DNA from: Escherichia coli
GTDB taxonomy: Bacteria; Pseudomonadota; Gammaproteobacteria; Enterobacterales; Enterobacteriaceae
Strand: one strand, 5' to 3'
DNA length: 64,000 nucleotides
Assembly: GCF_044324875.1 (NCBI RefSeq)
Contig: NZ_CP172185.1
Position numbers: made by a program. This document shows positions 34,601-43,600 of this stretch, in pieces. Every line of letters begins with the position of its first letter. Positions within the stretch are counted from its first letter, which is position 1.

Positions 34601-37600
34601 GTTCACAGGTTTGTCTTTTCGTTCGTAGGGGATTCATTCGCGATTGGCGTTGCGCAATGGTGGGATACGGTAAAGTTTTACCGCAGTGATTAATGATGTG
34701 AAGTCAATCCAAATCAATGGAGATCTCTCATCATGAACCAACCAATACACAATGCTTACTGGTTATCCCGTTTTGACAGCCTGCTCGACAGTGCCCTGGC
34801 GCAACACCGTGCCGTCTCGTTCATCCGGGTGGATTTACGGTTTCCTGAGTATATGCCTGCCACCATCATGGACTCCGGGCCGGATTCAGCGGTGATTTCC
34901 CGTTTTTTCGCCTCCCTGAAAGCCAAAATTCAGGCTTACCAGCAGCATAAGCGACGTACCAGTCAGCGTGTGCATGCAACCAGCCTGCGTTATTTCTGGT
35001 GCCGGGAGTTCGGAGAGGAAGAAAACAGGAAACATTATCACGTGATATTACTGCTCAACAAAGATACCTGGTGCTCGCTCGGGGATTTCAGCGAACCATC
35101 TTCGCTGGCGGCGATGATCCAGGAGGCATGGTGCAGCGCTCTGCATCTTGAGCCCTGGCAAGGCGATGGTCTGGTCCATTTTTCCAGGTGGAAGCCTTTT
35201 CGTAAACCAGCATCGTCTGATGCCCGTCCTTCTTCCGGTGACACCCCTTTGTCGGGTGGATGTTCTGATACCAGGAAGGCTGCAGACAAAAAGCCGGGTG
35301 AAGCCGCTGTTCTCTGGATCAAGCGTGGTGATGTGGCAGCGATGCAGAAAGCCCGGAAAAGAGCCCGTTATCTCGTGAAAAATCAAACGAAGCAGCATGA
35401 CGGTTCTGGTCAACGTAATTATGGTTGCAGCCGTGGGCCGGGGCGTCTGCTGGATGGCAGGTGAAGTCTGTAAAACGGTATCCGGTGCCAGGGGGGGGAT
35501 ATCACGGTAAGGGCGTCAGCCAACGTCTTTCGCTCGTATTCTGATAACCCGTCCTGAAGTCATGTATCTGCTTCCATTCTCATGTTCATATTTCTCTGAC
35601 GCTTTCACTGTCTGTCATCGGAAGTACCGATTTATTTTGGTGCTGCGCACTTACGGCCATTCACGGAAGAGGATTGTGGTGAACAGTAGGAGTCTGGCTG
35701 CTGGCGAGGGAAGGTTCAGGACTGGTATGGGGTTTAGTGCTGGAGGATGACTTTGAATCCCGGATTGACCAGTGAGGGGGCAGTGAGAGGATGCTCTGGT
35801 GTAACAGGTCTGGATTACAAAATATAAAACCGGTTGTACACTCGTAACGGGTAAAAGGATACGGGCAATAACACGTGGTACCCGGTGAGACTGGCTCTTG
35901 TATCACATTACCGGGAATATTCTGGCAGGTGAAATGTTCTGATAAGAATCATCCTGAGGGAGGATACAACGGATATGAACGTTATTGACAGCCGCATTCG
36001 TGATGTGAAATTTGGTGAAAATGTGAAAGTCGTCATGCCAGTAAACCTCTATGAATGTGAACTGGGGGATGATGTTTTTATCGGTCCCTTTGTGGAAATA
36101 CAGAAGGGATGCATCATTGGCAACCGGAGCCGAATTCAGTCCCACAGTTTCATCTGTGAGAACGTCATTTTAGGTGATGCCTGTTTCATCGGTCATGGCG
36201 TAACTTTTCCTAATGATCTGTTTAAGTGTGGTGGTCCCGATACCTCTGCAGAAAGCTGGATACGCATCGTATTAGGTAACACTGTAACAGTGGGTAGTGG
36301 AGCGACCATTTTAACAACAGAAATTTGCAGTGGAGCTGTGATTGGTGCTGGTAGTGTGGTTACAAAGCCCGTGCTGGTAAAAGGCGTGTATGCGGGTAAT
36401 CCGGCCAGACTTTTGAGAACGCTTTAATTATTGAATCCAATATTAAACCAGACAGACAGTAAACATAATACTGTTCCGGATATCGCTTGCCGCAGGAACC
36501 TCCTTAACATTCAGGAAAATAAAGCTTTTATTGCTGCTATGTACCATAAGAGACAGAAGTAATTGATTTACCAGTATTACACCTGTTGAAGCTATGGTTA
36601 TTCACCTTTTATTTTTTGAGCAGCGTATTTATACTTCCCGGAGCATTGTTTAAATATAATCGCCCGGGATTGATTCGTATGGCTCTTGAACAGGAAATCG
36701 CAAACCTTGTAAACGAGTTTGTCGCGGCTGGTCGTCCATCCTGTCGTGACCAGACCTTTGATGAACGCCGTGCCGGATATATCGCAAGTACTGCTCTGGC
36801 CGGCGATACAGAAACCCGCGTAAACATCAGTGATGTGATTATTGACGATGTTTTATTGCGCATATTTTCGCCTTTAAACGATGATGGGGTGTTATCCGCA
36901 ATTGTCTATTATCATGGTGGCTGTTTTGTCAGTGGTGGTTTTGTAACCCATGATAATCAGTTGCGACAGCTTGCTTTCCTGAGCGGTTGTCGTGTCATTG
37001 CTGTACAATATCGATTAACGCCGGAACATATTTATCCTGCGGCACATGACGATGCTGAACATGCCGCTAATATTGTGTGGCAACACGCAGAAATGTTGAA
37101 AGTTGATCGCAACAGAATAACGTTAATGGGGGATAGCGCTGGGGGACATCTTGCACTGATAACAGCACTGCGGGTTAAAAACATCGGTCAGTGGTTACCG
37201 CGAAAATTAATACTTATTTACCCTATGCTGGATGCCACAGCATCATGTGATAGTTACAAATTAAACGGTAGTGACTATGTGCTGACAGCAGACACGTTTC
37301 TTAGTGGTTATGAGGCTTATTTTTCCGGTCAGGATTTAGAACATCCGGAAGTGAGTCCATTATTCAGGAATGATTTCAATGGGTTACCACCTGTTCATGT
37401 CATCACAGCGGAATATGACCCATTACGCGATGAAGGTGAGGAACTGTTTTCCCGTATGATTCAACAAGGAGTAAAGTGTACCGCCCAGCGTTATCTCGGT
37501 GTCATTCACGGTTTTTTCCAGCTTGGCGGCATTAGCCAGACAGCCCGTAATCTGATGCAGGATATTTGTGGGATTGTTAAATAATCACGTAACAAGCAGC

Positions 37601-40600: not shown

Positions 40601-43600
40601 CAGATTGAATGAGCGCATGTGAGTTTATTACGTTGGCCTTGTACACGTTTTTTTTAGAACCACTGAGAGCAAGTTTGTAGTTTATGATGCTATTGGTCGT
40701 AATATGTTTCTTGAACTTTTGATCGTGGGTTTTTATCTCGTATTTTTCAGCATTTCTCGGTGTTGTATTGCGTCGATATTTTCTTTATTCCCGTTAATAT
40801 CATCTCGTCAGTGTCCATTCCTTTCATCACAATGCGTATCGTTAATAATCTGTTGTATCCATCCGCCTACAGCATGCCTGATAAATACCGTCTGTCAGTT
40901 ATTACCGTTTTAGATCTGATTATGAGCGAAGGTATTCATTCGCTGACAGAACTTAAAACGTCATTAACTTACAGGAGTTATCAGCATGCCTCAGTCTTAC
41001 ACACCAGACTGGTTTTTTACCGCCTTACTTGACCATCACATCGATCAAATGATGGCTCGCTATTCCTGTCTGCGGGCCTTACGGATGGATTTCTTCTACA
41101 GGAAAGAGACGCCTGATTTCTTACAACCTGATCACCGCTGGCTTGAATTGCAGTTGCGTATGCTGCTGGACCAGGTTGAACGGTTTGAAAATATGGTTGG
41201 TTTCTTCTGGGTGATTGAATGGACGGCTGATCATGGTTTTCATGCGCATGTGGTTTTCTGGATCGATCGTCAGAGGGTGAAAAAAATATATCCCTTTGCG
41301 GAGCGGATAACCGAATGCTGGCGGGCTATTACGTATAACTGTGGTTCGGCGCACCGCTGTACATACCAGCCGCATTATGCATACAACATCAACATTCCCG
41401 TGCGCCACAACGATCCTGAAAGCATCGATAATATTCGCGGTGCCCTGCATTATCTGGCGAAAGAAGAGCAAAAAGACGGACTGTGTGCATACGGCTGCAG
41501 CGAAGTGCCTGAACGTCCTGCTGCAGGGCGACCACGCAAGCTTCACGTCTGAAGCTTAAACCCTGAACCTCCGCACCTGGAAACAAGCCATCGGTAAAAA
41601 CTTACCGCATTGCTTAATGATGTGAACCGAAGTCAACGGAGTTCATTCACCCTGAATGTTCTTTCCTGATATTCCCGCTCAGCGTCGGTTCTTCACCTGT
41701 TCCATCAACCTCATCCGCAGCCTGTAACCCGTCAGCCCATCCATCCCCGGGCAGGACGCGTTGTGGGCTGCGCATAACGGAGCATATCCTATGAATGCTT
41801 TCCCTTATTTCGACGACAGCATGGCCCCCTTCTGGCCTTCGTATCAGAACAAAGTTATTGGCGTTCTTGACCGTGCGCTGCGTGAGCAGTCCGGCTCCCG
41901 GATACGTCGTATCCTGCTTCGTCTGCCGTGGGAACCCGATAACACCTTCAGCAGCCGCAGGACCTGGTTCGGTATGGCCTTTATTGAAACCGTCAGCGAC
42001 CTGATGAATGCAACCCCCGGACGTGACCTCTGCTGGCTCCTGACACGTCATCCTGAAAAGCCGGAATACCACGTGGTGCTGTGCGTCAGGCAGGAGTATT
42101 TCGACGGCCCTGAACTGGATCGGCTGATTCTGGATGCCTGGAGCAACGTGCTGGGCTTCGCCTCACCGGGGGAAGCGGCACCGTATCAGAAGCAGATTAC
42201 CCGGGATGTGCTGCTGGATCCCCGTTCACCGGACTGCGAGGAACTGTTCAGAGACCTGATCTGGGCGTTCAGTGATTTCGCACGTGATCGCCGGGGGGTA
42301 TACGATCCGGAAGCCCGTCACCTCGCCGGTAATCCCTGGTATCCCGGATCAGCAGGACGGCGCTGAACATCATGTTCAGCCGTTCCCCCGAACTTACACA
42401 TCCTTCCATTTCACCGAGGATATTCCGACCATGTTGAGCACAACAACATCCCACGACAGCGTATGGTTGCGTGACGACGATCCCCTGATCGACATGATTT
42501 TCATCACCAGTTTCACCGGCATGACCGACAAATGGTTCTACCAGCTGATGAGCGAAGGCAGGTTCCCGAAGCCCATCAAACTGGGCCGCAGCAGCCGCTG
42601 GTACAGAAGCGAAGTGGAGCAGTGGATGCAGCAGCGCATCGAAGCATCACGGGGAGAAGCATGAAAGGTATTGTGATACCGGTTCGCTGGCAATGTGCAA
42701 ACTGCCGGCGCTGGTATTGTGGTAATCCCCCCTGCCCCTGGTGCTGGCGACCTGCTGCACCGTCTGTCATTCCTCATCCTTCGCTGTAACAGGCATCGTA
42801 CCGGTGCCGGCGTGCTTTCCTGTGCACCGGCACCGGTTCAGAAACATGCAAAGAGAGCAAATCGTGCAGATAACCGAAACCGTACTTTCAGAGCCGGTGG
42901 AAATCCGGCGTTTTATTCAGCAGGCGGTGGATCACTGGCCGCGTCTGCTGGCCGTTCAGTTCACACTTCATTCAACAGGAGGAAATTGTGACGGGAGGCA
43001 GATTCATGCGTTTTACTGGGCATTTTACCGACAGCTGAATCAGCGAAGCCATACCGGATATCCGTTACTGCCGGTGGTGCTACGCTGGCTGCGGGAAACG
43101 ACAGAAAGCACAGACAGCACCGGGATACGCTGTCTGTTGCTGATCAGCCAGGATCTCATTTGCCCACCAGGATCCGGAATGACGTCTGATGACGCTGATT
43201 CGCACCTTGTGGCGTTACTGCAGCAGGCCGGCACCACACTCACGGCAGAAGGGCACTGTACGGTGGTATGCTGTTACAGGGTGGTGCGTGCAGCCACACC
43301 TGAAGGCGCTGAGTCACTCACGGCATTCAGAAACGCGTGCCTTTCGTTGGCCAGGCCCGTGATGGCCGGCATCATCCGCTAAGCAACATGATGTATCCCG
43401 GTTCAGCCGCTGAAACCGGCTCCTTCAGCAGCAGACCGGTATGAGGTTGTTCCCCCGGACATTCCTTCGTAGAATCCGTGCTGTGTTCGTACTTCCGGAG
43501 CCGTCGCCATGAAAATCTGTCTTTACCATACCCTGAATCCTGAAACGATCCCGGGCTATAAAAAGTTTGCGCAGGCCATTGAGGCAGATAATTTCGCGCA

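Follow-up and report, generated by a model that had tools for sequence, protein, structure and literature searches.

Four diverged YagK/YfjJ-type HUH Rep-like genes, two with and two without the catalytic residues, in a CP4-57-like island of Escherichia coli

In the 64,000-nt stretch of the Escherichia coli contig NZ_CP172185.1 (assembly GCF_044324875.1) analyzed here, hereafter the window, a same-strand (+) gene row spans positions 34733-43382 and includes four open reading frames (ORF1 to ORF4, Table 1) which, to judge from their sequences, are diverged paralogues in one superfamily, that of the HUH Rep-like YagK/YfjJ proteins, also called 'inovirus Gp2'. In this region lies the conserved 'housekeeping' backbone of a CP4-57-like integrative island, and the annotated counterpart of the region in the chromosome of E. 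coli LH50-c aligned with the window at 98.7-99% identity. An initial annotation, made by direct reading of the DNA, had proposed a clean H-u-H-u-u-u signature in two of the encoded proteins, a degenerate version in a third and a hypothetical relative after alpA. The paralogy within the YagK/YfjJ HUH superfamily was borne out by Pfam, by bridging sequences and by profile searches, and the two clean signatures proved to be present, conserved in their families and accompanied by the tyrosine of a YxxK motif.

ORF1 contains KHYHVILLL, in which H101-Y102-H103 forms the HUH motif, and carries its YxxK motif at Y213-L-V-K216 and a glutamate (E92) on the preceding strand. HYH and YxxK were present in all six aligned members of the ORF1 family, which came from E. 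coli, Klebsiella, Citrobacter and Pseudomonas. The Pfam family PF11726 (YagK_YfjJ_C, gathering cut-off 25.8 bits) matched ORF1 with 127.2 bits (E 8e-37) over profile positions 2-170 of 170, and PF23343 (REP_ORF2-G2P, gathering cut-off 27.8 bits) matched it above the cut-off with 30.9 bits. In addition, tblastn with ORF1 returned a Microviridae VP4-like Rep (E 3e-5), and a sequence search of the PDB with ORF1 gave no match. An insertion of ~40 residues (around 150-195; window ~35180-35320), rich in Ser, Pro, Asp and Lys and probably forming a disordered loop, is shared by the E. coli orthologues of ORF1 and is missing in K-12 YfjJ and in the Klebsiella, Citrobacter and Pseudomonas members. Note that the C-terminus of ORF1, GCSRGPGRLLDGR, is related to the RPxxGRPR(K) tail of the ORF2 family.

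In ORF2, which contains FHAHVVFWI, the HUH motif is H86-A-H88 and the YxxK motif Y156-L-A-K159, together with E78 and a C-terminal GRPRK tail; H86, H88, Y156 and K159, and also E78, are nearly invariant across 34 ORF2-family sequences. The Pfam scores of ORF2 itself lie slightly below both cut-offs (26.6 bits for PF23343, i.e., 1.2 bits short, and 23.0 bits for PF11726), and many of its homologues, at 36-89% identity, carry both domains and are named 'inovirus-type Gp2' or 'rolling circle replication-associated protein'. The AlphaFold model of ORF2 is of high confidence (pLDDT 86.7, pTM 0.84) and places an N-terminal helix before a beta-alpha-beta-beta-alpha-beta core, with H86 and H88 on the third strand (84-94) and Y156 at the end of the next helix (144-158). 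Compared with predicted viral structures (BFVD), the model found 'Inovirus Gp2' as its top match (E 8.5e-7, TM 0.71); the matches next in rank were parvovirus NS1 nuclease domains, ORF2/G2P-domain proteins, a microvirus Rep and an archaeal rudivirus Rep. ORF2 is thus predicted to fold like viral Rep/NS1 nuclease domains, a match which by itself is not specific because generic ferredoxin-like domains score equal or higher. The RPxxGRPR(K) tail (window 41519-41549) is nearly invariant in the ORF2 family and resembles the AT-hook, a motif that binds the DNA minor groove. The LH50-c orthologue of ORF2 (L001 26370-26935) is annotated as frameshifted, unlike ORF2 itself, whose reading frame is unbroken over its full length.

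The two signatures are not a product of chance, since H-u-H-u-u-u occurred only three times among all six-frame stop-to-stop segments of at least 100 residues (27,909 residues in the 64-kb window), two of these matches being ORF1 and ORF2. The third, HAHLAY at 14380 on the - strand, sits in a tetratricopeptide-repeat protein and looks like a chance match.

The reading of ORF3 as degenerate was upheld and extended: the first His is missing and so is the tyrosine. ORF3 (for which an alternative TTG start at 41761 is possible) contains PEYHVVLCV, and shows E92-Y93-H94 at the HUH position and S161-D-F-A-R165 at the YxxK position. Its family follows the pattern E/C/F-Y-H at the former and S-D-[FM]-x-R at the latter, and the first His and the Tyr were missing in all ORF3 relatives found, including P0250 and P0258 (34-36% identity). 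This family is very narrow: when 1.8 billion representatives were searched exhaustively with HMMER, only 38 matches came up, nearly all of them close E. coli fragments, with two useful distant relatives. PF11726 did not match ORF3, and its 89%-identical relative P0007 reached 11.9 bits, below the cut-off; the relative P0250 (36% identity) matched the same family with 41.8 bits (E 1.4e-10), and a profile of the ORF3 family matched K-12 YfjJ (7e-11) and other genuine members (3e-13 to 8e-7).

The fourth gene, which the initial annotation had listed as a hypothetical following alpA, turned out to be a real paralogue, with a different start and with all catalytic residues lost. Its homologues place the start at the GTG at 42864 and not at 42741, as does RefSeq in the 99%-identical LH50-c, the frame from 42741 being an over-extension. 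ORF4 has I88-R89-C90 at the HUH position and no tyrosine motif, and keeps E78; its family shows an invariant I/x-R-C and no tyrosine. PF11726 gave no match to ORF4, and precomputed PF27752 assignments were found on all 71 of its 71 homologues, including the 99%-identical P0063. PF27752 is labelled UCP030791, an uncharacterised family ('putative phage-derived protein') to which the close homologues of ORF4 belong, and some ORF4 homologues are named 'inovirus Gp2 family protein'. A bridge protein from a Klebsiella plasmid island (L005:10139-10705) aligned with ORF4 at 29% identity (E 2e-12) and with a genuine PF11726 protein at 33% identity (E 4e-8), and a YfjJ-type profile matched UCP030791 proteins at 1.4e-5. 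In the predicted model of ORF4 (pLDDT 69), a helix is followed by beta-alpha-beta-beta-alpha-beta and a further helix, in the same order as in ORF2. By these comparisons, UCP030791 is a YagK/YfjJ paralogue devoid of the catalytic residues; we found no statement in the literature linking it to YagK/YfjJ.

A YfjJ-type profile, built from six proteins, was run against every six-frame segment of the window and ranked ORF1 first, followed by ORF3 (E 5e-5), ORF2 (0.011) and ORF4 (0.083). The window thus holds four paralogues and no fifth, because these four head the ranking and the remaining matches are noise (E >2.5). Note that NCBIfam gave no match for any of the four proteins, and that a 41%-identical 'phage' match (ECO111 5-P) was discounted, as it lies on an unverified, low-coverage and unannotated 4.5-kb contig.

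Altogether, ORF1 and ORF2 carry the sequence hallmarks of the Rep class of HUH endonucleases, namely a family-conserved HUH motif and a YxxK tyrosine, while ORF3 and ORF4 cannot perform HUH chemistry because the HUH and Tyr residues are lost in every relative found. The initial annotation had named the lack of a HUH-fold prediction or of a conserved catalytic tyrosine as what would speak against its proposal; no such lack was found for ORF1 and ORF2, and it was found for ORF3 and ORF4. A nicking or replication-initiator activity would follow from family membership. As another possibility, all four might be domesticated DNA-binding regulators of island genes (together with AlpA) or of host genes, none of them cutting DNA. 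Such regulators would be in line with the loss of HUH chemistry in two of the four, with the position of the genes in one same-strand row with the regulator alpA, and with the AT-hook-like tail of the ORF2 family; however, from E. coli to Pseudomonas the ORF2 family keeps H86, H88, Y156 and K159 and the YfjJ-type proteins keep HYH and YxxK, a conservation that is hard to explain without catalysis, and we regard this possibility as quite improbable.

All four genes are under purifying selection. When each gene was compared with its counterpart in strain YJ4, the ratio of nonsynonymous to synonymous substitution rates (dN/dS), obtained from a single sequence pair with a simple method, was 0.36 for ORF1, 0.16 for ORF2, 0.15 for ORF3 and 0.36 for ORF4, against 0.22 for yfjI and 0.24 for alpA. 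The degenerate ORF3 and ORF4 are therefore maintained as proteins, since their values fall in the range of ORF1, ORF2, yfjI and alpA. These values also bear on the idea that the genes are functionless remnants of a decayed prophage, for which one may cite the many insertion sequence (IS) elements and the frameshifted helicase of the island, as well as the frameshift of ORF2 in the closest relative, LH50-c. In contrast, all four frames are intact in the window, their dN/dS stays at 0.15-0.36 and the block is kept in more than 1000 genomes, so that we hold such decay to be extremely improbable.

The immediate neighbors of the four genes are given in Table 1. The genes by which a CP4-57-like island is recognized (tyrosine integrase, alpA, yfjI, a Gp2-like gene and GTPase/DUF932/antirestriction/RadC/CbtA-CbeA) were found by way of the annotated LH50-c counterpart, where a tyrosine integrase, RadC, DUF932, a GTPase and an antirestriction gene are accompanied by toxin-antitoxin pairs of the ParDE and CbtA/CbeA types; alpA is annotated at this place in both LH50-c and YJ4. 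The yfjI product matched PHROG 2373 'DNA helicase' (E 3e-46), and a 5'-3' helicase activity has been shown for a PriCT-DUF3987 protein of a mobile element (PMC11724360). The acyltransferase and hydrolase pair (35975-37584) is missing from most related E. coli islands (the 64% query-coverage class), in which yfjI comes directly after ORF1, and it looks like cargo inserted into the island backbone. Downstream of ORF4, a variable cargo or defence slot is filled by the UvrD-like/ankyrin helicase, which is broken into two ORFs overlapping at 44639-44642, is marked as frameshifted in LH50-c too, and matched defence helicases (e.g., GajB) only weakly and generically. Between alpA and ORF4, the ATG of a small Cys-rich ORF overlaps the alpA stop codon (ATGA); its product of 42 residues begins MKGIVIPVRWQCANCRRWYCGNPPCPWCW and shows the pattern CxxC...CxxxxCxxC. 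Two 'putative zinc ribbon protein' genes stand at this position in the Klebsiella island and the YJ4 counterpart reads differently, so that the small ORF is a doubtful gene.

Table 1. Genes and spacer of the same-strand row and of the slot downstream of it, with positions in the window
Feature	Position	Strand	Description
ORF1	34733-35464	+	YfjJ-type HUH Rep-like protein, 243 aa
Hexapeptide acyltransferase	35975-36427	+	Pfam Hexapep
Alpha/beta hydrolase	ends 37584	+	Pfam Abhydrolase_3
yfjI	37831-39423	+	YfjI-family DUF3987 protein, putative island replicative helicase; PF13148 E 2e-75
AT-rich spacer	39424-40985		1.56 kb without annotated gene, between yfjI and ORF2
ORF2	40986-41552	+	Gp2-type HUH Rep-like protein, 188 aa
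ORF3	41791-42366	+	Degenerate YagK/YfjJ paralogue, 191 aa
alpA	42431-42664	+	AlpA-family helix-turn-helix regulator and excision activator; PF05930 Phage_AlpA E 3e-10
Small Cys-rich ORF	42661-42789	+	Candidate gene, 42 aa; direct reading of the sequence
ORF4	42864-43382	+	Probable UCP030791 (PF27752) protein, assigned through its homologues, 172 aa, fully degenerate paralogue
UvrD-like superfamily 1 (SF1) helicase with ankyrin repeats	43509-46354	+	Frameshifted; Pfam UvrD-helicase, UvrD_C_2, Ank

The island has also received mobile insertions. An IS21-family element (istA/istB, 2,641 bp) is present in three 100%-identical copies (606-3246, 29134-31774 and 62792-64000), the third being cut by the window end, and all three stretches are without an aligned counterpart in the compared region of LH50-c. 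An IS3-family element (33350-34563) lies directly upstream of ORF1, where it takes the place of the LH50-c sequence, and contains an ALIL frameshift pseudoknot (33631-33747; Rfam RF01497, 116 bits). As for signals of transcription, promoter-like sites were fewer than in shuffled sequence and terminator-like sites were in modest excess (13 vs a shuffled mean of 8.0, sd 3.0), and none of either kind could be assigned to the gene row.

The search for origin-like repeats near the paralogues, which the initial annotation had called for, led to the spacer between yfjI and ORF2, where an iteron-like array was indeed found, but nothing ties it to the Rep-like proteins. The spacer is of 36-38% GC, with a strong strand asymmetry in composition; units of ~21-23 nt repeat at 40019-40129, and the 8-nt unit TCACTCTA occurs five times at 40199-40240, the repeats in 40019-40240 reaching Tandem Repeats Finder scores of 86, 72 and 84 and forming the direct-repeat families D1-D4. 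When the spacer was aligned with LH50-c and YJ4, the flanks were conserved and the T/C-rich repeat core was variable: the unit TCACTCTA is present in 5 copies in the window and in 11 in LH50-c, and none aligned in YJ4, so that this array behaves as a variable-number tandem repeat within an AT-rich spacer. The spacer repeats are a candidate origin or regulatory array of iteron-like appearance. An Rfam scan returned the IS3 frameshift pseudoknot only and no family in the spacer.

The initial annotation had further regarded several diverged copies in one island as unusual, which did not hold. Among 5426 complete E. coli genomes, 1015 contain the ORF2-ORF3-alpA-ORF4 block at a coverage of at least 80% and 4000 show some match to it, in up to 11 places per genome; RefSeq already annotates such genes, as 'inovirus Gp2 family' or 'YagK/YfjJ domain-containing' proteins, and similar ensembles occur in other enterobacterial islands. 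As an example, the backbone of YJ4 reads ORF1, yfjI, spacer, ORF2, ORF3, alpA, small ORF and ORF4, followed by a Dnd/Dpt defence system at the place that the broken helicase occupies in the window. On the metagenomic contig L009, AlpA is accompanied by a G2P-type gene whose product shows HAH, YLAK and GRPRK, by a degenerate YagK-type gene and by UCP030791, and the Klebsiella plasmid island carries an intact Gp2 gene, AlpA, the two zinc-ribbon genes and a UCP030791-like gene. The pNDM-CIT island and K-12 CP4-57 hold alpA-yfjI-yfjJ only. Intact and degenerate copies thus recur together beside alpA in divergent islands, and the multi-copy arrangement is common, not universal.

The slot that follows the Gp2-like genes holds varied anti-phage systems in relatives and looks like a defence hotspot: Dnd/Dpt in YJ4 (L003 21807-36410), a CBASS-like SAVED/ThiF/MPN/nucleotidyltransferase cluster in pNDM-CIT (L006 8956-13299) and AbpAB plus RnlAB in K-12 (L002 7852-13856). 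One could imagine from this that the Rep-like proteins, the dead copies especially, themselves serve in interference or defence, by binding the origins of single-stranded DNA (ssDNA) phages or of rival islands and blocking their replication. The position of the genes directly upstream of this slot and their similarity to inovirus and microvirus Reps would fit this role, but no PADLOC model matched any of the four, and the genes belong to the conserved backbone and not to the variable slot; we regard such a role as very improbable.

Several known systems are close enough to guide the interpretation of the four genes. K-12 YfjJ (CP4-57) and YagK (CP4-6) belong to PF11726 and carry HYH and YxxK motifs as in ORF1; K-12 YfjJ is without the insertion of ORF1, and ORF2, ORF3 and ORF4 fall below the Pfam cut-off, so that their homology draws on indirect support (P0250, the bridge protein and the locally built profiles). 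K-12 CP4-57 shares the context of alpA, yfjI, GTPase, DUF932, antirestriction and CbtA/CbeA, but holds a single copy in the order alpA-yfjI-yfjJ, whereas the window has four copies in another order. The ssDNA-phage initiators (PF23343 inovirus G2P type and Microviridae VP4) carry the same HUH and YxxK motifs; in contrast to these, the island proteins are much shorter (~190-240 residues, the nuclease domain only) and are encoded in a chromosomal island without phage structural genes. The nuclease domains of parvovirus NS1, adeno-associated virus Rep and SIRV1 ORF119, whose HUH structures are solved, differ by their low sequence identity. Islands at the tmRNA site of Pseudomonas carry IntY, AlpA, an adjacent inovirus Gp2-like gene, RadC and defence cargo (bioRxiv 10.1101/2024.08.29.610337). 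They resemble the present island in their recurring core of tyrosine integrase, AlpA and Gp2-like gene, and differ in genus and integration site, in having one Gp2-like gene each and in their transduction by a jumbo phage; the study does not give a role for the Gp2-like protein (bioRxiv 10.1101/2024.08.29.610337).

For the degenerate copies, we propose an analogy with eukaryotic viruses. The origin-binding domain of SV40 large T antigen and the DNA-binding domain of papillomavirus E1 have a Rep-type fold, have lost HUH and Tyr, and act as a DNA-binding module alongside a helicase. ORF3 and ORF4 may likewise be putative DNA binders, with the difference that they are free-standing and the viral domains are fused to the helicase. 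In the most likely explanation, to which we give about an even chance, the excised island DNA would be nicked for the start of replication or transfer, the degenerate copies being non-catalytic DNA-binding partners. AlpA would activate excision, and ORF1 and/or ORF2 would introduce a nick into one strand of the island circle, at a cognate site, joining the 5' end through the catalytic tyrosine; the free 3'-OH would then be used for rolling-circle-type replication or single-strand production, while YfjI, the DUF3987 helicase of the island, or an SF1 helicase of the host would unwind the DNA from the nick. ORF3 and ORF4 would take part as partners that do not cut (in site recognition, assembly or control), as do the nuclease-dead, Rep-fold origin-binding domains of some viruses, and the AT-rich repeat array between yfjI and ORF2 would be the best candidate site of action. 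The adjacent DUF3987 gene, the iteron-like AT-rich repeats, the catalytic residues kept in the ORF1 and ORF2 families and lost in those of ORF3 and ORF4, the homology of the four, their low dN/dS, the conserved ensemble and the parallel in Pseudomonas all speak for this explanation.

The same catalytic motifs would equally serve a relaxase-like function, in which ORF1 and/or ORF2 would nick an origin of transfer (oriT) and the island would move as ssDNA through the channel of a co-resident plasmid or integrative and conjugative element; the island would then count among the integrative mobilizable elements, its relaxase being of Rep type (MOB_T-like), and ORF3 and ORF4 would be accessory relaxosome proteins. 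Rolling-circle replicases form a recognised relaxase class, MOB_T (bioRxiv 10.64898/2026.01.13.699239), copies of the genes were found within large conjugative plasmids, and several genes elsewhere in the island (KlcA/ArdB-like antirestriction, RadC, DUF932 and DUF905) are of kinds typical of DNA entering cells by conjugation. However, Pfam gave no match to relaxase families such as Rep_trans, no oriT was recognised, a homologue was present on just 64 of 72,556 plasmids, and the island-encoded replicative-type helicase better suits replication. We consider the relaxase-like function, which is the main alternative, unlikely.

The nicking of excised island DNA for replication, with dead partners, has in turn to face a number of observations that weigh against it. 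In K-12, excised CP4-57 is not maintained but lost, a fate that speaks against robust autonomous replication. Nor is a set of four copies obligatory, since K-12 CP4-57 holds one. The repeat array is variable and its 8-nt units are missing in YJ4, no counterpart of it exists in K-12 or pNDM-CIT, where yfjI adjoins yfjJ, and no nick site or hairpin was identified in the spacer, which gave only a weak 30-nt inverted repeat (70% complementary). The confidence of the ORF4 model is moderate, and the IS insertions and the frameshifted helicase indicate that this copy of the island is decaying. Among the family alignments of ORF2, ORF3 and ORF4, hhalign gave probabilities below 2%, a null result that we attribute to alignments which are too shallow (Neff ~1.8-1.9), and bridging sequences and searches with hidden Markov models were used in their place. 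Finally, we found in the literature no functional study of YfjJ, YagK, inovirus Gp2, DUF3296, UCP030791, PF27752 or PF23343, and no biochemical test of an island-encoded member of PF11726, PF23343 or PF27752.

The families and their arrangement are already annotated in E. coli and the genes are widespread, so that what is added here is modest: ORF3 and UCP030791 (ORF4) are catalytically dead derivatives of the HUH Rep-like fold which are under selection and recur with intact copies beside alpA. A more far-reaching proposal, which we regard as somewhat unlikely, would be that intact Gp2/YfjJ nickases, two obligatorily dead paralogues (degenerate YagK type and UCP030791), AlpA and the DUF3987 helicase form the machinery that initiates replication or transfer in the commonest class of E. 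coli 'cryptic prophage' islands, and that these islands would be live rolling-circle elements (satellites or mobilizable elements) and not dead prophages. Most E. coli genomes contain CP4-57-like islands, whose cargo includes toxin-antitoxin, virulence and anti-phage genes. Should the intact copies prove to be nickases, with the degenerate ones as their DNA-binding partners, one could test the mobility of these islands directly, and a role would be assigned to YagK/YfjJ and UCP030791, two families that are as yet uncharacterised.

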